51,868 nt of DNA from positions 1 through 51,868 of IMG/VR virus record IMGVR_UViG_3300009345_000002. One strand, 5' to 3'. Positions 5,535-29,239 of the stretch are shown one piece after another. The notes beneath the pieces are model-generated. The model did not search any database. It was not told the DNA's origin and was given only the letters and a program-made list of their open reading frames with translations. Source of the stretch: a virus. Taxonomy: Duplodnaviria > Caudoviricetes. The translations under genes were made by a program, and so were the position numbers. Within the stretch, counting starts at the first letter, position 1; every line of letters begins with the position of its first letter.

Positions 5535-5862
5535 ATTTATAGCTGTTGCTTGGTTGTATATATATACAGAATATAATGACTATTCAGCAGTAAGTGAGGA
5601 TATGTTTTGGTTGGCAGTAGGTTTCTTAACTGGGACTATTATTGTTAAACTAATAGGGTTTTGCTATTGCCATAAGGCATTAGCAGATGCAGGAATATTT
5701 AGCTCAGTATCTGTGGCTATAAAGCTTAATGTCTACTTAATTATTAACTTCTACTTATTTATGGAAAACGAGTTATATATATTAGCAACATTATCATTTA
5801 TTGCTCAAGCATCTTATGCTGCACTAAATATTTATTACAACAACAAAAAAGATGGAGAATAA
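5512..5862 (+). CDS. putative multi-pass membrane protein
   Basis: Several hydrophobic segments; AAGGAG RBS. Confidence 0.65.
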   Translation: MKILTTFKFIAVAWLYIYTEYNDYSAVSEDMFWLAVGFLTGTIIVKLIGFCYCHKALADAGIFSSVSVAIKLNVYLIINFYLFMENELYILATLSFIAQASYAALNIYYNNKKDGE

Positions 5863-6058
5863 AATGATTAGTTTGTTCAAAAAATGTAGTAAATGTGGTA
5901 GAACTTTACCTTTCTTTATGTTTAGAAAAATAAGCAAAGGAGGTCAAGAGGCAGGAATGCCAAGCCGTGATTATAAATGTGATGATTGCAGAAAAGAATA
6001 TATGCGTAATTACTTACGCACTTATATGAGAACTTATAGAAAGAAAGGTAAAAAATAA
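5852..6058 (+). CDS. small zinc-finger protein
   Basis: CSKC...CDDC followed by basic helix. Confidence 0.65.
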   Translation: MENKMISLFKKCSKCGRTLPFFMFRKISKGGQEAGMPSRDYKCDDCRKEYMRNYLRTYMRTYRKKGKK

Positions 6059-6060
6059 AA

Positions 6061-6363
6061 ATGGATATGAGAAAACTAAGGCTTATGGCTAGGGTATCTC
6101 AAAAGGAGGCAGCTGAGATTATTAATGTATCTCAAGCTGCTCTATCCGATAAAGAGGTAAATCCAAAAAGAAAATTTACACCAGAGCAAGAAAAGATTTT
6201 ATATAGTCATTATTTTGATAAAATTAATAGTCTTTTTGATATTTTCCAACTTGCTGCTATTCAGCGTATTGACGATATAGATAAAAGGCTTAATCAAGAG
6301 CAAAAAAGAGAGTTAGCTGTAAGATTATTTAATTTAACAGAGGAGTTTATCAAAAATGTATAA
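6061..6363 (+). CDS. XRE/Cro-like HTH transcription regulator
   Basis: LRLMARVSQKEAAEIINVSQAALSDKE helix-turn-helix pattern. Confidence 0.75.
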   Translation: MDMRKLRLMARVSQKEAAEIINVSQAALSDKEVNPKRKFTPEQEKILYSHYFDKINSLFDIFQLAAIQRIDDIDKRLNQEQKRELAVRLFNLTEEFIKNV

Positions 6364-6562
6364 AGTAAAATTTAGAAGTTTAGGCAAAGATGTTGATATT
6401 GAAATTTCAGATGAAACATTTAAAAATGCCCAAAGGTTAAAATGTCGTAATATGTCAGCTGAAACAGAGACTTATCTTATTCTTTTATTTGATAGAGATG
6501 ACGAGGGAATTTTAGTTTTAGAAAAAAATTGTAAAAAAGTGCTTGACAAAAAGAGTAAATAG
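6356..6562 (+). CDS. hypothetical protein
   Basis: GAGGAG RBS, overlap with upstream stop. Confidence 0.6.
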   Translation: MYKVKFRSLGKDVDIEISDETFKNAQRLKCRNMSAETETYLILLFDRDDEGILVLEKNCKKVLDKKSK

Positions 6563-15249: not shown

Positions 15250-15278
15250 TTGAGTTAGTATTATTATTATAGTATAAT
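15250..15278 (+). promoter_or_regulatory. promoter for candidate sRNA-A
   Basis: TTGAGT(15250)-17-TATAAT(15273). Confidence 0.6.
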
Positions 15279-15284
15279 AATAAA

Positions 15285-15387
15285 TGTTGCAAGAGGTATT
15301 TCTTTCACTTTCTTAATATCTCTTGTGATTATTCCTTATAATTAAGTTATAGTAAAAAAGGCAGAATTAATTTTTTGTCTTTTTTTT
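15285..15387 (+). ncRNA. candidate small RNA A (~100 nt)
   Basis: Own promoter, long hairpin with pyrimidine loop, TTATTCCTTAT segment, intrinsic terminator, no RBS-led ORF. Confidence 0.45.
15354..15387 (+). terminator. intrinsic terminator
   Basis: AAAAAAGGCAGAA-TTAAT-TTTTTGTCTTTTTTTT. Confidence 0.65.
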
Positions 15388-17087: not shown

Positions 17088-17484
17088 TATATCTCATAAA
17101 ACAGAGCTTGCAGCATCAAAATTAGGTTTTGCAATGCACAGAAATAATACAGGTGTGTTTTATGCGATTAAAGATCATGGATTCAAAAGAAATCAAGCTT
17201 TTGTTAATCTTTTAAATAAATTCTTTAGAAGAGTTCAAGCTGGATTAGGGAAAGGAACGTCAGATTTAATTGGTTGGCGTACTGTTGAAATAACTCCTGA
17301 TATGGTAGGTAAGCGTATTGCAATTTTTGCTGCGCTTGAGATTAAAACAGATAAAGGACGAGCAAGCCCAGAGCAGATTAACTTTGTAAAACAAGTTAGA
17401 GCTGAGGGTGGAATTGCAGAGTTTGTGAAAGGAGATGAGGGAGTTGAAGATCTGGTTACAAAATATCAAGATTCTAATGTTTAA
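17068..17484 (+). CDS. VRR-NUC domain nuclease (resolvase-like)
   Basis: RNNTG, GLGKGTSDLIGW, ALEIKT..GRASPEQINF..GGIA. Confidence 0.88.
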   Translation: MAQQETNISHKTELAASKLGFAMHRNNTGVFYAIKDHGFKRNQAFVNLLNKFFRRVQAGLGKGTSDLIGWRTVEITPDMVGKRIAIFAALEIKTDKGRASPEQINFVKQVRAEGGIAEFVKGDEGVEDLVTKYQDSNV

Positions 17485-17659
17485 AAGACAAATTACTTCT
17501 AAACAATTAGCAGAAGAAATGGGGATTAGCAGAACTTATGCAAGTTCTCTAATAAATGGAAAAGAAAAAATAACAGATAAAAGATTTCAACAAATTGCTG
17601 AAATTTTAGACTCTACAGTAGATCAAATAAAACATGAAAGGATAGAAATACATGATTAA
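17477..17659 (+). CDS. XRE-family HTH regulator (start at or upstream of 17477)
   Basis: ITSKQLAEEMGISRTYASSLING...QIAEIL. Confidence 0.75.
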   Translation: MFKRQITSKQLAEEMGISRTYASSLINGKEKITDKRFQQIAEILDSTVDQIKHERIEIHD

Positions 17660-19602: not shown

Positions 19603-19840
19603 TTTCCCTCTTGCAAAACCTGTAAAGGATAAGCACAGTTTTTAAGTATTTCTGTAAAAAATACTTAATTATTATGGAGGCCGCAGGTAGAATTTAATAC
19701 AATCTCACCGTAAGGCGAATGCTCAGTTCAAGTCTGAGGGTAACCGAGAAACCCATCGAGTGGGGCAATTGACTAGGATGTAAAACAGAGAAGAAATTGC
19801 AGCAGTTTTAGATATTTCTGCTAAATAAAAAAATATCTAC
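19601..19840 (+). ncRNA. structured intergenic RNA containing a tRNA-like domain (19676-19746) flanked by two pseudoknots
   Basis: T-arm CTCAG-TTCAAGT-CTGAG, partial acceptor stem GGAGGCC/GGTAACC, GNRA hairpins, PK2 19635-19668, PK3 19801-19839. Confidence 0.5.
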
Positions 19841-20759: not shown

Positions 20760-20967
20760 TTTACTACTATGGATTTCTATAATATTAAATATAATATTTT
20801 TCAGAGCAATAATTATACATTCAAAAACATTAAAAGATATAAGAAAAATTGCAAATATGCAAATTAATATTTTATCATTAAAAGGCTGTATTGGATATAA
20901 TGAATTTGTAGAGGTTATGGATTCATTAAATAGAATAAGCGATAAAACAGAAAGGCATAAAAAATGA
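20752..20967 (+). CDS. small protein with N-terminal TM helix
   Basis: AGGAG RBS; hydrophobic N-terminus. Confidence 0.6.
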   Translation: MTNLLLWISIILNIIFFRAIIIHSKTLKDIRKIANMQINILSLKGCIGYNEFVEVMDSLNRISDKTERHKK

Positions 20968-21731
20968 CTAAAAAAACACAAACACCTATGACAGCAACAG
21001 CTTGTTTTGAGCTTATTAAAAAAAGTAAAAATGTTGCAGACCATAAATTTTTAAACGAGTTAGAAAAAACAACTAAGCCAATGCTTGATAAAGCTTTTGC
21101 AATTGGTCAAGAGTATAAAATAAGACAATTGTTATTTACATTGAAAGTTATTGCAAAAGAAAAAATATTAGTTGATTTAGGTTTTGATACATATGTTTAT
21201 AGAGATGATGTTGAGCAATTTGTTGATATGTATGCAGAAACAAATGATTCTAAACATATTGCAATCATTGAACTTGAAAAGTATGAAAGAGAAATACCTA
21301 ATCATATTGCCGAAGATGTGCTTAAATTAAAAGAATTAGACATTTTTGATAGATTTCTTATTGTTTATACAGATTACACTCAAAAGACAAAGAAACGAGT
21401 TGAAAAAGAGCGTGATCCTATTATATTTGGAATATTTGAAAGAGGTAAAGGTCATAATGTAGAAATTTACGATAAGATGTATTTTATTGGAGATTGGGAA
21501 GATGATTATTGCGACCTTACTCTTGAAAAAATGGTTGATGTAATGGCTAAGAAAAAGAATAAAGATATTAAACATAGCACTTTTGCTAGTACTGATATTA
21601 AATCTATTGAAAAATACATGGAAAAACTATCTGAAAGTAATGATAAGACTAATTTTAGAATAATTCCAAATAAAAAACCTACTGTATTTAAAAAAGTAAC
21701 AAGAGTGCTTAAATCATGGATAGGTCAATAG
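20964..21731 (+). CDS. conserved-looking hypothetical protein (DPIIFG...FIGDWEDDYCDLTL)
   Basis: 255-aa ORF with motif-like C-terminal half. Confidence 0.75.
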   Translation: MTKKTQTPMTATACFELIKKSKNVADHKFLNELEKTTKPMLDKAFAIGQEYKIRQLLFTLKVIAKEKILVDLGFDTYVYRDDVEQFVDMYAETNDSKHIAIIELEKYEREIPNHIAEDVLKLKELDIFDRFLIVYTDYTQKTKKRVEKERDPIIFGIFERGKGHNVEIYDKMYFIGDWEDDYCDLTLEKMVDVMAKKKNKDIKHSTFASTDIKSIEKYMEKLSESNDKTNFRIIPNKKPTVFKKVTRVLKSWIGQ

Positions 21732-22093
21732 ATTTAACACAAAACTTTCTCTTTTCAAAGAATCCTTTATCTGATATTTCAAATATGAGTTTTGGAATTA
21801 AGAGTAAATTATTTCAAAAATCTTTTTCTCTGGTGGAATTTATACATGGAAGTAATCCAGCAGATGAAAGACAAAGAGCTTGGAGTAATACAACTTTATT
21901 ACTTGGAGTAAATTCAAATAAAAATGAAGATTATCTAAAATATTGTGAAATTGAATCTGGTAATAGTTGTTTCTGCTGTGGGAAAAAAGAAAATATTTTT
22001 AAAAATGTTAGATTAGGATTTATTGGTATTTGTGGAGAATGTGATCGCAGAATGGAGAATATGGAATCAACAAAAAAATGGTTGCAATCCTAG
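21716..22093 (+). CDS. zinc-finger hypothetical protein
   Basis: CFCC...CGEC. Confidence 0.65.
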   Translation: MDRSIDLTQNFLFSKNPLSDISNMSFGIKSKLFQKSFSLVEFIHGSNPADERQRAWSNTTLLLGVNSNKNEDYLKYCEIESGNSCFCCGKKENIFKNVRLGFIGICGECDRRMENMESTKKWLQS

Positions 22094-22110
22094 TATTTTT
22101 GTGGTATATT
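22082..22110 (+). promoter_or_regulatory. promoter for candidate sRNA-B
   Basis: TTGCAA(22082)-17-TATATT(22105), TG extended -10. Confidence 0.65.
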
Positions 22111-22115
22111 TATAA

Positions 22116-22212
22116 ATGAGGTTATCAACACCTCGTTCAAAATTAAAAAAATATATTTTTTTTTATTTTGTTTATTTGTTTAGGGAAAAGTAGGTTTTTA
22201 GCCTGCTTTTTC
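22116..22212 (+). ncRNA. candidate small RNA B (~95 nt), antisense to CA-rich mRNA leaders
   Basis: 5' hairpin GAGGT/ACCTC, GU-rich core TTTTATTTTGTTTATTTGTTTAGG, terminator hairpin, no RBS-led ORF. Confidence 0.55.
22185..22212 (+). terminator. intrinsic terminator
   Basis: AAAAGTAGGT-TTTTA-GCCTGCTTTT followed by T-rich tail. Confidence 0.65.
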
Positions 22213-22213
22213 A

Positions 22214-22279
22214 TTTTTTTATTGTTTTTACTTGACACCTGTCAGATAAGGTGCTATATTATACATATACTAAACAAAA
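22214..22279 (+). promoter_or_regulatory. duplicated 66-bp promoter cassette, copy 2
   Basis: TTGACA(22232)-17-TATATT(22255); CACCT-N8-AGGTG inverted repeat in spacer. Confidence 0.85.
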
Positions 22280-25115: not shown

Positions 25116-25240
25116 TGATATAATATATATAAATAAGACCCTGGGGGTGTCTTTAAGTACCCTCACTAGATTATGGATAAAATATCCACCGTAAAATTAC
25201 GCACTATACCTTTTAAGCACGTCCATAGGAGGACATAACG
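25116..25240 (+). promoter_or_regulatory. extended -10 promoter and structured 5' leader (pseudoknot PK4, SD-occluding hairpin)
   Basis: TGaTATAAT at 25116-25124; AAGAC-CCT-GGGGGT-GTCTT-TAAGT-ACCCTC; GTCC-ATAGGA-GGAC. Confidence 0.5.
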
Positions 25241-25546
25241 ATGTTAAACAGAAAAACTGTTAAACAGTTGAAACAAGAAATTGCAGATTTAAATACTCAA
25301 CGCGATATTCTTTTAGAAGACGGTGATGGAGTAGTGGTAAATCTCTGTAATGTTCATACCCTTAATATTCAAATTCAAAAACGCGAAAGCATGATTAAGG
25401 ATATTAAAGATATGTTAATTAAACAGGAGCGTTTGCTTGAATACGATATTCAGCTTACTAAAGATAAGATTGATCTATTAACTGAATCAGTCATTGTCGG
25501 CGATAACTCCAAAGAGAACCAAAGACTAATTAAACTAAGAAATTAA
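25241..25546 (+). CDS. coiled-coil hypothetical protein (frame continues past TAA to 25639)
   Basis: AGGAGG RBS; heptad pattern. Confidence 0.7.
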   Translation: MLNRKTVKQLKQEIADLNTQRDILLEDGDGVVVNLCNVHTLNIQIQKRESMIKDIKDMLIKQERLLEYDIQLTKDKIDLLTESVIVGDNSKENQRLIKLRN

Positions 25547-25824: not shown

Positions 25825-25856
25825 AAAAAAGACCCATAATTACTATGGGTCTTTTT
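25825..25856. terminator. bidirectional intrinsic terminator between convergent arms
   Basis: AAAAAAGACCCATA-ATTAC-TATGGGTCTTTTT. Confidence 0.85.
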
Positions 25857-25894
25857 ATTTAAGTATGGTTATATCAAGCATGTGATGTTGATAC
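25825..25894 (-). ncRNA. candidate small RNA C (~70 nt), antisense to lysis-operon 5' end
   Basis: Minus-strand TTGACA(25928-25923)-17-TACATT(25905-25900); contains CTTGATATAACCAT; ends at terminator. Confidence 0.5.
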
Positions 25895-25928
25895 TTAATA
25901 ATGTATCACTAATTGACTAATCTGTCAA

Positions 25929-26234
25929 CTACTTCTTTTGCTTACTTGTTGGAGTTAAATAACCAGCAATACCAGTTGCAATTACAGTACCAATAGCTTG
26001 AGTAACACTAACTGTTGTTTCCACTCCTGCTGCAACATAAGCTGCTTGAACAATAGCTGTACCAAGTTCTGGGCTAATAGCAATACCAATAGACGAGCCA
26101 ATTGATAAAACAAGAGAAACCATTGAAGATTTTTCTTTAGCTCTATTAACAACAAAACTTTTACTGTTTTTTAAAGTAGGTCTGATTATATTTTTCTCAA
26201 CTACCTTACATAAGCTTTTTAATTTTTCTAACAT
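25929..26234 (-). CDS. putative holin / lysis membrane protein
   Basis: Basic N-terminus, hydrophobic helices, basic C-terminus, adjacent to endolysin. Confidence 0.55.
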   Translation of the reverse strand: MLEKLKSLCKVVEKNIIRPTLKNSKSFVVNRAKEKSSMVSLVLSIGSSIGIAISPELGTAIVQAAYVAAGVETTVSVTQAIGTVIATGIAGYLTPTSKQKK

Positions 26235-26253
26235 TTTTTTGTTCCTTTATTTT

Positions 26254-26616
26254 TTAATAACCGAATATTGTTTGATGCTCTCTGTCATCAATATGCACAA
26301 TATCTTTTCTTATTCCAACTGTAAGGCCCAATGCTATAGCAGTTGTTATAAATTTAATTCTTTGTTCTTGATTCCAATGAGACCAAGGAAAATCTACAGC
26401 TCTACCTAGCTTATGCATAGAATCCTCACTACCACCTATTTTTTTATTGAACTCTTCTGATCTCCAAGAAGAACTAGGAGATAATCCAAACCCAACAATA
26501 TGTCTTAAGAATCCTATTTTAGATAAGAACCCTTTATCCATATGCTCAAAAACATTAACCCTACCATAATCCATAGTGAACTCAGTAGGTTTGAAATATT
26601 TATCAAAATAATCCAT
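26254..26616 (-). CDS. peptidase M15A-family endolysin
   Basis: SSWRS..FN..IGG..DSMH.LGRAVD...VHIDDR zinc-peptidase motifs. Confidence 0.85.
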   Translation of the reverse strand: MDYFDKYFKPTEFTMDYGRVNVFEHMDKGFLSKIGFLRHIVGFGLSPSSSWRSEEFNKKIGGSEDSMHKLGRAVDFPWSHWNQEQRIKFITTAIALGLTVGIRKDIVHIDDREHQTIFGY

Positions 26617-26676
26617 ATATTTTTTTCCTTTCTTTGTTTGTAATATTATATATTATAACAGAAAAAAGCTAGTTTA

Positions 26677-27210
26677 TCAACCAGCCTTATTCATCATCTT
26701 TTCTAGTAGTAATAACTTACTCGTTATTCGCTCTTGTCTCGTCCTCAGTTGGTTGGATTCCTCCCTCAGAAGACCCATTTCCTTCTTTATCGAAAAAACC
26801 TCAGCATTTGTATTTGTTAGATCAGTTCTAAGACTTTCTCTTGTTCTAACAACCTCTTGGCTTAGGTTTTTGTTTTGTTCAGACATTATTTTAACCGTTG
26901 TTGATACTGTAGCTAATTGCTCCCTAACTTTAAAGTTCTGGTCTGACATCTTTTTATTCATATCAGATAACTCATCTTTTACTTCTAGCATTATATTTGC
27001 TAGTTCTATTTTAGTTTTTAACGGCTCTAACTCAGAGTTTGCTCTGTTATCGCTTGTAATTTTTTCTTGAGTTTTACTATTATTTGCTTGGTCTTTTATC
27101 TGCTCGTCATAAGATCTAAACTTATCAACAAGCAACCAACAAAATCCTAAAAATAAAGCCCCAACTATAAAGCCCTGTATACTATTTTTACTGTTTAAAT
27201 CAATTTGCAT
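26677..27210 (-). CDS. N-terminal TM + coiled-coil protein (lysis accessory, spanin/holin-like)
   Basis: One TM helix then long coiled coil; immediately upstream of endolysin. Confidence 0.55.
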   Translation of the reverse strand: MQIDLNSKNSIQGFIVGALFLGFCWLLVDKFRSYDEQIKDQANNSKTQEKITSDNRANSELEPLKTKIELANIMLEVKDELSDMNKKMSDQNFKVREQLATVSTTVKIMSEQNKNLSQEVVRTRESLRTDLTNTNAEVFSIKKEMGLLREESNQLRTRQERITSKLLLLEKMMNKAG

Positions 27211-27311
27211 AATAAACCTTTCTAATTAAGAGTAGGAAAGGGGCGAACCCCAAACCTAAACCTTAATATAACCATATTTACATAATACAACTAATTAGTA
27301 TAAATAGTCAA
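27211..27311 (-). promoter_or_regulatory. lysis-operon promoter and structured leader
   Basis: TTGACT(27311-27306)-18-TATTAT(27287-27282); leader starts ATGGTTATATTAAGG and has GGGG-TTCG-CCCC hairpin. Confidence 0.6.
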
Positions 27312-27312
27312 T

Positions 27313-27341
27313 AAAAAAGACACCTGTAAAGATGTCTTTTT
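27313..27341 (-). terminator. intrinsic terminator
   Basis: AAAAAGACATCT-TTAC-AGGTGTCTTTTTT on minus strand. Confidence 0.75.
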
Positions 27342-27344
27342 ATT

Positions 27345-27905
27345 TTATATCTCACTTTCATTCATTTCAAACCATGTATAAGCAACATGTATTCTCTGAG
27401 ACTTAGCATGAGTATTAGTTATTTTTAACACAAAGAATGAATCTGGATTATAAAGTCTAAATCCTAAATCAGAATTTATACCACCACTAGATTGACCAAC
27501 ATTACCAGCAGATGGTATAAAGTCTCTTTCCCTTATTGTGCCAGCTGTTGCTGGAGGGGTTGTAAGCTCATTAATTGCCATAGTAGCAACTGAGGAACTA
27601 AGCCTATTCTCATTAAACGATGGTATTGATGATCCTGTTGACAATCCTGTAGAATCCCATAATATTTCTATTTCAGCTCCTCCAGATTCTGTTTTAAATT
27701 GCCTTTGCTGTAGTGCAATTATTTTTCCACTAGACGTACTTGGCATTTGATATAAAACATACTTTACCTCGCCAGAGTTAAAGCTTTTATCATACTCTGC
27801 ATAAAACCTATGACCATCAAAAGTTTCTTTTTCAGATAACTCTGATGTATTTACTAAACCTGTCTTATTAGCCTTATGACCAAATATATTTGTAAAATCT
27901 CCCAT
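27345..27905 (-). CDS. hypothetical (likely virion, beta-rich) protein
   Basis: AGGAG RBS; late region. Confidence 0.7.
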   Translation of the reverse strand: MGDFTNIFGHKANKTGLVNTSELSEKETFDGHRFYAEYDKSFNSGEVKYVLYQMPSTSSGKIIALQQRQFKTESGGAEIEILWDSTGLSTGSSIPSFNENRLSSSVATMAINELTTPPATAGTIRERDFIPSAGNVGQSSGGINSDLGFRLYNPDSFFVLKITNTHAKSQRIHVAYTWFEMNESEI

Positions 27906-27914
27906 AACAAGCTC

Positions 27915-28241
27915 CTACTCTACATGAATAATATTATCTATTGCAACAGTTAAATTAGTTGCACCAGTATATTTTATTTTATATTTACAATTCATGCTCA
28001 TAGAAATATTTTGAATATGTTGAGCGCCATCTTTTACATCTATACCCTCAAGTAATGGATAGTAATTATCATTATCACCAATTATAGTAGCCAAGATATC
28101 AACAATTCCAGTATCACCATGAATCATAGTTAGTATTGGTCTTGAATCCAAATTTAAGGTTACGTCTTGTTGGAATGGTTTAGATTCACCATTTCCTGAT
28201 ATTCTTTGTATATCAATATCACTAGTATTTTTTAGTATCAT
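27915..28241 (-). CDS. hypothetical protein
   Basis: GAAAGG RBS; late region. Confidence 0.65.
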   Translation of the reverse strand: MILKNTSDIDIQRISGNGESKPFQQDVTLNLDSRPILTMIHGDTGIVDILATIIGDNDNYYPLLEGIDVKDGAQHIQNISMSMNCKYKIKYTGATNLTVAIDNIIHVE

Positions 28242-28305
28242 TTTATTAGCCTTTCATTATTTTAAACAAAACAATGATTGAATTAAGGTATATTAAAATA
28301 ATAAC

Positions 28306-28439
28306 ACAAAAGCAGCCCTATTACAATAGAGCTGCTATCTGCATTATACAGATGATTATATTAAGTATATTATTACTTATGGCTATTAAGGGAGAGAGCA
28401 AAACCTAAATCATGCACTCCCACACCTTAATACAATCAT
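28306..28439 (-). ncRNA. candidate small RNA / attenuator leader D (~130 nt)
   Basis: TTTACA(28472-28467)-17-TATATT(28449-28444); long 5' hairpin; terminator-like hairpin AGCAGCTCTAT/ATAGGGCTGCTTTTG at 28337-28307. Confidence 0.5.
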
Positions 28440-28458
28440 AAATAATATAACACCCATT

Positions 28459-29166
28459 TTAATCCTTGTAAACAGTTTTAAAGAAAATACCAGGTAAAAA
28501 TGATAAAAATCCTTTAAGTTTATATCTATACCCTAAAATATCCAATAAAGGTTTTTGAGATTTAACGCAATTTAACCTCATGTTTAATAATTCCGTATTG
28601 TAAGCTGTAGATTGTTTTAATCCACTTACAGCCTTTCCTGTTTTATTATTGGTACAATCAGTCCTAATTAACACATAATGCTTTTTAATATGGGTTAAAT
28701 CTAGCTCATGAGCAGCAATAACACCCTTTCCTTTATCTAATTTATAAACTTTACCTTTTATAATACTTGCCATTCCTGCAAAAGGACTTCCAAATAAACT
28801 GATTATATATTGTTTTAAATTCTGTGGCTTGTAAAATGCCAAATAAACATATTTACTATTATATCTATCACTCTTAAAATTATATCTTTTTAAAGCCTGA
28901 TAAATAGTAAAGTAAAAAAATACAAAATTAAGTATTAATATTGACATGCTAGAATTGGAATTAAGGTCAACTATGACATATAATATCTTATGAATTGCCA
29001 TGGATAATACGACACTGATTGCCTCATCTCTTGATGAACATATGGAGATTGTTAATAATGTAATGATTGTATAGAGGTCTTTATAATAAAAGAACTCAAT
29101 TGGTAGAATATCATAGCAGTTATAAATATAATAACCCATGATAAGAAATATATATAGTTTATTCAT
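28459..29166 (-). CDS. membrane protein with soluble C-terminal domain
   Basis: Several N-terminal TM segments; 235-aa ORF. Confidence 0.7.
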   Translation of the reverse strand: MNKLYIFLIMGYYIYNCYDILPIEFFYYKDLYTIITLLTISICSSRDEAISVVLSMAIHKILYVIVDLNSNSSMSILILNFVFFYFTIYQALKRYNFKSDRYNSKYVYLAFYKPQNLKQYIISLFGSPFAGMASIIKGKVYKLDKGKGVIAAHELDLTHIKKHYVLIRTDCTNNKTGKAVSGLKQSTAYNTELLNMRLNCVKSQKPLLDILGYRYKLKGFLSFLPGIFFKTVYKD

Positions 29167-29211
29167 AATAAAACACCTTTTTAATTAAAATTTTGATTAT
29201 ATTAAGGTGTT

Positions 29212-29239
29212 GGAGGGACTTTCACCCTCCTGTTTTTTT
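29212..29239 (+). terminator. terminator-like hairpin with U-tract on + strand (antisense to late operon)
   Basis: GGAGGG-ACTTTCA-CCCTCC-TGTTTTTTT. Confidence 0.55.

Follow-up and report, generated by a model that had tools for sequence, protein, structure and literature searches.

The window, by which we mean the whole stretch of DNA analysed here, is a contig of 51,868 bases with a G+C content of 31%, in which the terminase, portal, capsid, sheath and baseplate genes are encoded on the minus strand and the replication genes on the plus strand. It stems from an uncultured, myovirus-like phage that is an orphan, as its terminase is only about 25% identical to those of cultured phages, and the relatives of its capsid protein are restricted to one at 95% and one at 55% identity. 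The repertoire of putative regulators includes two small HTH-like genes (17435-17659, 74 amino acids, E 1.3e-8; 6061-6363, 100 amino acids, E 2.4e-4), while no integrase and no serine or tyrosine recombinase was detected among the scanned ORFs (46 + 38 ORFs with PHROG, 53 with NCBIfam and 26 with Pfam); the gene labelled 'transposase' by PHROG (20964-21731) yielded only sub-threshold, nuclease-like leads. ARAGORN returned a blank, and an Rfam search of the whole window gave two sub-threshold matches, neither of them in the region studied here, and no family match. Iteron-like direct repeats of 21-22 nt are present at both contig ends (51550-51725 and 24-198) in opposite orientations and possibly mark a replication origin or a genome end. 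Two G+C-richer intergenic stretches (19670-19800 and 25125-25245, plus strand) contain small hairpins that fold no better than shuffled sequences and hold no tRNA.

The genes of immediate interest are located on the minus strand. The TM-coil gene (26677..27210) encodes a protein of 177 amino acids with a single N-terminal transmembrane segment (residues 10-28) and a weak match to Rz-like spanins (phrog_214, E 1.4e-4); its identity as a spanin is weak, no nested partner ORF of at least 30 amino acids is listed on its strand, and its putative role in lysis is suggested by this match and by its position. It is preceded by a terminator (27341-27312) and then by the predicted promoter P27311 (TTGACT-18-TATTAT; the two elements together occupy 27282..27341). 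The TM-coil leader (27211..27275) contains a hairpin with a UUCG loop and an open Shine-Dalgarno (SD) sequence, AGAAAGG (27223-27217); on the minus strand its fold is no better than that of shuffles (49/300). A candidate leaderless upstream ORF of 17 codons (27275-27222) starts at position +1 and its stop codon overlaps the SD sequence; as 5 of the 15 predicted promoters have an ATG 5-7 nt past their -10 box, this start is weak evidence. The endolysin (26254..26616; Peptidase_M15_3, PF08291, E 1e-11; phrog_894) and the probable holin (25929..26234; 101 amino acids, unassigned in Pfam and PHROG, with an Atlas lead of 'Holin family protein' that scores 0.84 against a bar of 0.9) follow downstream.

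The sequence-only reading had treated these three genes as one transcript. This view does not hold, as a terminator (26688-26665) and the near-consensus promoter P26680 that overlaps it (26652..26688) separate the TM-coil gene from the endolysin and holin genes, which probably form a unit of their own. With terminators on both of its sides, the TM-coil gene is likely read from P27311, even though this promoter is one of the weaker ones. P26680 (TTGATA-17-TG-TATAAT, 26680-26652, 11/12) carries the palindrome-like motif of the early promoters and lacks the motif that is the subject of this report; the endolysin/holin leader is open and likewise free of it. The palindrome-like motif is positioned over the -10 box of the early promoters at 534, 6562 and 50397 (plus strand) and of the endolysin/holin promoter at 26659 (minus strand), which makes it a candidate for an operator through which lysis would be tied to the control of the early genes.

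The holin stop codon (25931-25929) is immediately followed by a further predicted promoter, P25928 (TTGACA-17-TG-TACATT, 25900..25928), which together with a terminator at 25856-25826 delimits a predicted RNA of 69 nt (25826..25894, minus strand), in agreement with the transcript of about 70 nt that had been proposed at this site. We refer to it as sRNA-C. It is modelled with a 5' hairpin and an exposed AACCAU toehold, and its sequence doubles as the predicted 3' UTR of the endolysin/holin mRNA. The -35 box of P25928 belongs to a short inverted repeat (25913-25928), of which it makes up one arm and which would form a hairpin right behind the holin stop codon in the lysis mRNA. It should be noted that a simple promoter scan of the genome returned 54 sites where 53 were expected.

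The complementarity from which this work started is present as described: CTTGATATAACCAT in sRNA-C (25878-25865, minus strand) pairs with ATGGTTATATTAAG at positions +1 to +14 of the TM-coil leader (27275-27262, minus strand) over 14 nt with one G-U pair, and the duplex would grow to 15 nt with a transcript that includes position 27276. Modelling leaves six bases at the end of the sRNA seed and eight at the beginning of the leader unpaired, a geometry suited to toehold pairing. The TM-coil leader is the best accessible target of sRNA-C (1/85), narrowly so at -6.2 versus -6.0 kcal/mol for an unrelated runner-up; by dimer energy it ranks second of 83, and by raw duplex energy it stands behind eight non-self windows. 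Of 5000 shuffled 5' parts of sRNA-C, 846 had a complement of 14 nt with at most one G-U pair somewhere on the two strands of the genome, so that the match as such would not be surprising in an AT-rich genome. At predicted 5' ends, a match of 14 nt was obtained with only 2 of 5000 shuffles and one of 15 nt with none (0/5000); this set comprises 14 hand-picked ends, to which P27311 was added by hand; this promoter scores 10/12 with an 18-nt spacer and did not pass the stricter promoter cut. Together, the modelling supports a trans-acting sRNA-C that pairs with the 5' end of the TM-coil mRNA.

The sequence-only reading went further and envisioned a timer or safety catch, in which sRNA-C, or a read-through 3' UTR with the same sequence, directly represses the message of the TM-coil, endolysin and holin genes and thereby delays lysis. 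The top rank of the TM-coil leader among the accessible targets fits such a role, as do the upstream ORF running from +1 to the SD sequence, which is reminiscent of mok (PMC4147584, in the text available), and the continuous pairing of 15 nt that is sufficient for OrzO according to the accessible portion of PMC3919570. The hok-type fold-back between the two ends of the message also forms in a model of a 1450-nt read-through RNA, with pair probabilities between 0.84 and 1.0, but the polymerase would have to pass the terminator at 26688-26665, and the fold-back leaves uncovered the SD region modelled in the dimer. The target does overlap the base of the leader hairpin, as had been claimed; it is not next to the ribosome-binding site (RBS), as the pairing covers +1 to +14 while the SD sequence begins at +53, about 40 nt away. 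Occlusion of the TM-coil RBS by sRNA-C was considered and rejected, as the modelled accessibility does not fall on binding: the opening cost is 2.24 kcal/mol for the leader alone and 2.35 kcal/mol with sRNA-C bound, and the occlusion of this RBS ranks only 51st among 83 leaders (2.2-2.8 kcal/mol). Since the endolysin has a terminator and its own promoter upstream, the targeted RNA is probably not a lysis-operon mRNA, and any fold-back depends on read-through. Of this claim, the targeting of the TM-coil leader is supported by modelling; the role as a timer or catch for lysis is weakly supported. The endolysin and holin genes, with their own promoter and motif-free leader, are probably not direct targets of the 14-mer RNAs. 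We regard direct repression of lysis by sRNA-C as decidedly unlikely, and the link between the 14-mer and lysis is indirect at best.

A different picture emerges when the 14-mer is traced through the surrounding DNA. The match between sRNA-C and the TM-coil leader is not unique, as four more copies and a variant, missed in the earlier work, are situated within 3.4 kb. In total, six copies and one variant are distributed between 25865 and 29207 (25.8-29.2 kb), all of them intergenic and in both orientations. Read on the minus strand, two copies stand at the start of predicted transcripts, namely the TM-coil leader and an RNA that we call X, and are referred to here as keys; the other five are complements, or anti-keys, and are found in sRNA-C, twice inside X, in the leader of p108 and in the leader of p235. 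Conservation is limited to a core of 14-16 nt, and the flanking sequences differ.

This family structure largely refutes the view that the match is a chance product of an AT-rich genome, a reading that we regard as extremely improbable. Apart from the genome-wide shuffles mentioned above, it could draw on the 37 matches found at the level of three mismatches where 27 are expected; against it, each copy ranks between second and seventh of about 103,700 positions in a leave-one-out search, in which the five training copies are counted, the copies are clustered, and they are placed at predicted 5' ends. With at most two mismatches to the consensus, which was derived post hoc, all five of the five matches fall within 25.8-29.3 kb. 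The copies provide the stem arms in four separate local RNA folds, and the variant within X, from which 2 nt are deleted, still pairs. Of the six core substitutions among the copies, as read by hand, three are compatible with G-U pairing, two match a change in the neighbouring partner, and one creates a mismatch. In nine of nine modelled pairings the minus strand gives the stronger duplex; these cases are not independent, as they share a few substitutions, and two of them are nearly tied. The possibility that the motif is a late-promoter element was rejected, since the copies occur in both orientations and the head and tail genes lack a full copy ahead of them.

The remaining copies are located upstream of the TM-coil gene, around p186, p108, X and p235 (all minus strand). 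p186 (27345-27905; phrog_5335, of unknown function) and p108 (27915-28241; no family) form a predicted two-gene unit (27345..28241), whose predicted promoter P28326 resides inside the terminator of X and is followed by the p108 leader (28242..28326 for both); an anti-key in this leader (28288-28274) pairs with the SD sequence. RNA X (28305..28439) is a predicted unit of 135 nt without a long ORF, with a key at its 5' end (28439-28425), a terminator at 28336-28311, and two internal anti-keys (the variant at 28392-28378 and a copy at 28365-28352) that fold back on the key of X itself. Its predicted promoter P28472 (TTTACA-17-TG-TATATT, 28444..28472) begins in the final codons of p235. A hydrophobic plus-strand ORF of 18 amino acids opposite X (28352) has no SD sequence upstream. 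The p235 gene (28459..29166), predicted to be the last of the head-tail operon, encodes an orphan membrane protein with hydrophobic segments at residues 50-68 and 74-92; its C-terminal half, judged by eye, resembles a permuted papain-like domain, although no family match was obtained. A structure model of p235 made without an alignment reached a pLDDT of only 37 and was unsuitable for a fold search. In the p235 leader (29167..29215), an anti-key (29207-29193) pairs with the SD sequence, and this leader shows 88% complementarity over 25 nt to the 5' part of X. When compared with shuffles, it folds better on the plus strand, and the TM-coil leader likewise has no advantage on the minus strand. 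A plus-strand terminator (29212..29238) directly follows a key-sense copy, so that a short cis-antisense RNA to the p235 leader is possible, although its promoter is weak.

Folding models thus predict two locked leaders, lock 1 at p235 and lock 2 at p108. When X is added in the model, the cost of opening the RBS decreases from 9.3 to 2.2 kcal/mol for p235 and from 6.1 to 1.7 kcal/mol for p108, the two largest X-induced unlocking effects among 83 leaders. Unbound, the RBS of p235 and that of p108 rank 3rd-4th and 9th-10th among the leaders in occlusion; this result is partly built in, as the AAGG in the key means that every anti-key close to an SD sequence is bound to lock it. Unlocking of p235 is likewise modelled for the TM-coil leader, with a ddG of -7.1 to -10.0. 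Full-length X conceals its own key, at an opening cost of 9.0, which implies that X may need to be processed or to act while nascent; among its accessible targets p235 is only the fifth best, and p108 is outside the top eight. The modelled binding of sRNA-C amounts to -8.9 for the TM-coil leader and only -1.8 for X, a preference consistent with a G-C pair that is unique to the former combination: the anti-key of sRNA-C (25865..25878) has a C opposite the G at position 4 of the key, and only the TM-coil key carries that G. In terms of modelled pairing, the TM-coil key is thus the best fit for sRNA-C. Two partial matches were also seen. The predicted start of the head-tail operon transcript (50216-50205, minus strand) contains a 10-nt perfect complement of the X key that touches the SD sequence of the first gene and is borderline with respect to chance, and the final endolysin codons (26262-26254, minus strand), which immediately precede the holin RBS, form a 9-nt duplex with the variant anti-key of X (third of 85 targets).

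The same distribution of copies could be explained at the level of DNA, if they were asymmetric operators recognised, irrespective of their orientation, by a protein of the phage which represses or times host-type promoters; the RNA complementarity would then be a by-product of their opposite orientations. Multiple asymmetric operators are bound by the repressors of P1, P7, L5, Bxb1 and phi105 (PMC1934351, in the portion available), and several non-palindromic copies near promoters, as in operators of the P1 C1/L5 type, are indeed found here, four of them within about 30 nt downstream of predicted -10 boxes (P28472, P28326, P27311 and P25928). The DNA similarity between the sRNA-C and TM-coil copies extends beyond the predicted start by another 10 nt on its upstream side (24 nt, 88%), with non-wobble mismatches in that part, and the two small HTH-like genes could provide a binding protein. 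Operators would leave unexplained the four local RNA stems, the pairing-competent deleted variant, the 25-nt match between X and p235, the strand asymmetry and the two units devoid of ORFs; moreover, no integrase was found among the scanned ORFs, and three early promoters as well as P26680 already carry another motif, the palindrome-like one. We consider this explanation unlikely.

The copies might also be relics of short direct or inverted duplications of promoter-leader-terminator cassettes, with local hairpins and no regulatory pairing in trans. Near-duplicated promoter regions do occur elsewhere in the genome (15399 and 22232), the RBS regions of TM-coil and p235 resemble each other (repeat D3), and in one inverted pair (I3) the flanks match beyond the predicted transcript. 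Simple duplication is difficult to reconcile with the restriction of conservation to the 14-16-nt core, with substitutions that are mostly compatible with pairing, and with the placement of copies at predicted 5' ends, and we view it as quite unlikely. In our opinion, it is highly improbable that the lysis and p235 genes lie in a shufflon-like, invertible region that recombines at the repeats. Repeats of 14-25 bp in both orientations do flank whole genes (I2, I3), but shufflons and other invertible segments have a site-specific recombinase encoded nearby, whereas no serine or tyrosine recombinase was detected among the scanned ORFs and the 'transposase' gene offers nothing beyond its nuclease-like leads.

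We therefore favour, with a probability of roughly 0.55, the reading that the 14-mer is the shared word of a lock-and-key network of RNAs at the outer end of the late region, in which sRNA-C would serve as an anti-key. As the same word of 14 letters recurs at several nearby sites, these RNAs are likely to pair with one another and thereby switch late genes; the feature is real and wider than first noted, and its mechanism is likely a different one. Keys would begin the predicted TM-coil mRNA and RNA X, and anti-keys are predicted by folding to lock the SD sequences of p235 and of p108/p186. The predicted opening of these locks might be brought about in trans by a key through strand displacement, starting from a single-stranded toehold. 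sRNA-C may soak up the TM-coil key, as may the 3' UTR of the endolysin/holin mRNA, whose end has the identical sequence, and such titration would create a threshold or a delay for the unlocking of p235. Since the lysis mRNA ends in the anti-key sequence, transcription of the lysis genes would feed into the circuit. Rather than blocking a lysis ribosome site, sRNA-C would cap the 5' end of the TM-coil mRNA, and it might lower TM-coil output via the 5' tail by acting on a standby site, on the leaderless upstream ORF or on mRNA decay. The purpose of such a network might be to time genes whose host-type promoters would otherwise have them transcribed immediately.

Anti-leader RNAs appear to be a habit of this genome, since a second predicted RNA, E2, is complementary to many leaders. 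E2 (22115..22226, plus strand; unit region 22082-22226) is a predicted promoter-terminator unit with three hairpins that is unrelated in sequence to the 14-mer and represents a separate system. Its U-rich middle is perfectly complementary over at least 10 nt to 16 of 84 leaders (mean of the shuffles 5.4; none of 500 as high), in a leader set that includes one entry (4676) with a mis-set start; the partners are A/C-rich leaders of early genes, and the pairing extends to 16 nt with the gene at 575. From its sequence, E2 is a candidate sRNA for the shut-off of early genes. The promoter-terminator unit E1 (15250-15385, plus strand), which has a 15-bp hairpin (z -4.5), showed no complementarity above chance to any of these leaders (0/84).

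A more comprehensive model can be entertained only tentatively. The phage may possess a natural toehold-switch circuit in which one 14-nt word serves as key, as lock (at p235 and p108/p186, and partially at the small-terminase and holin RBS) and as anti-key, so that the late genes for membrane proteins and of the lysis region, which have ordinary host promoters, would be timed through the titration of RNAs and not by a late sigma factor or an antiterminator, while E2 would shut the early genes off. If this were true, neighbouring genes would be unlocked by the 5' end of an mRNA and by a small RNA, and these would be titrated by another small RNA, a new way of timing late genes for a phage dependent on promoters of the host type, with parts that are all shorter than 140 nt.

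Relatives of the phage in which the network could be followed are scarce. Viral scans with the endolysin, the tail sheath and a capsid alignment, together with a genome scan, recovered no relative. A search with the baseplate protein found four loci with 27-36% identity and no other shared gene, and one with p186 found eight loci that share p186 only. The motif is absent from the eight p186 loci (best PWM score 10.6, versus 19.5-23.8 for the copies in the window). In the one locus that was examined in detail (L005), the gene order is different: the p186 homologue (5707-6519; 270 amino acids) is situated between a terminase and a portal-like gene in a different phage layout, which indicates that p186 moves between phage types, and its extra N-terminal part may correspond to p108. 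For TM-coil a single variant with 96% identity was found, and the p235 search returned only p235 itself. Scans with the motif gave 7 and 10 matches, none of them with a second strong copy or shared synteny, which we treated as chance, while scans with the long motif gave none; a blastn comparison of the region with cultured phages produced six short matches, all outside the motif copies.

How, then, does this system compare with known regulatory RNAs? The c4 RNA of P1/P7 and the sar RNA of P22 are, as here, short phage RNAs (68-77 nt) that pair with an mRNA of their own phage (PMC12197685, in the text available). They block the ribosome site of an antirepressor mRNA (PMC12197685), whereas in our case there is no antirepressor and the RBS is not the target. 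The motif is, furthermore, common to several RNAs, activation is predicted, and there is no Rfam match. Among the phage RNAs compared here that act on genes of their own phage, sar, c4, OOP, aQ and PAK_P4as15 repress, with IsrK as the exception, and none of the papers accessible to our literature search describes a phage lock-and-key circuit of this kind. PAK_P4as15 has been proposed to delay lysis (PMC5563952 and PMC12197685, available portions), but it is a cis-antisense RNA of about 550 nt over the endolysin gene (PMC5563952), while we are dealing with a short match in trans that does not involve the endolysin unit. The PLE satellite RNA SviR, according to the available text, is a trans-acting sRNA with several targets among phage mRNAs and its own; it differs in that it functions in a conflict between satellite and phage and lowers translation, and no relationship in sequence is to be expected (10.1101/2022.04.08.487710). 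Many phage ncRNA candidates are still without a function, as the available part of a recent preprint indicates (10.1101/2023.10.13.562163).

The pairing itself resembles IstR-1/tisB and OrzO/zorO, in which a non-overlapping sRNA pairs over about 15-18 nt with a part of the 5' UTR at some distance from the start codon, and in which paralogous pairs are distinguished by few bases (PMC4147584 and PMC3919570, as far as their accessible text goes). With 14-15 nt, one G-U pair and a position at +1 to +14 relative to an SD sequence at +53, the duplex studied here is a borderline case of such pairing, which typically comprises at least about 15 nt off the RBS. The targets described in these texts encode small toxins and have a sequestered RBS (PMC4147584, PMC3919570); in contrast, TM-coil is a protein of 177 amino acids, and the sRNA is encoded downstream on the same strand. 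The sequestered RBS or standby site of the tisB type is not seen in the open TM-coil leader. With hok/sok it shares a pairing region that overlaps a possible upstream ORF and the potential for 5'-3' pairing in a read-through RNA (PMC4147584, in part). Type I toxins typically have fewer than 60 amino acids (PMC11264685, available portion). TM-coil is no such small toxin, a terminator separates the two ends, and in the model the SD sequence is open without translation of the upstream ORF at 27275-27222. The antisense RNA Sok is encoded in cis opposite the leader of its target, whereas sRNA-C is not opposite its target and is located 1.4 kb downstream on the same strand. The 14-mer system belongs neither to the hok/sok nor to the tisB type, nor to any Rfam family. 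In mechanism it would be comparable to systems in which an RNA acting in trans opens a hairpin that hides an SD sequence, as DsrA and RprA do on rpoS by anti-antisense pairing and as engineered toehold switches do. The predicted locks of p235 and p108 would operate in the same manner as this anti-antisense or toehold activation, with key, lock and anti-key sharing one 14-nt word within 3.4 kb.
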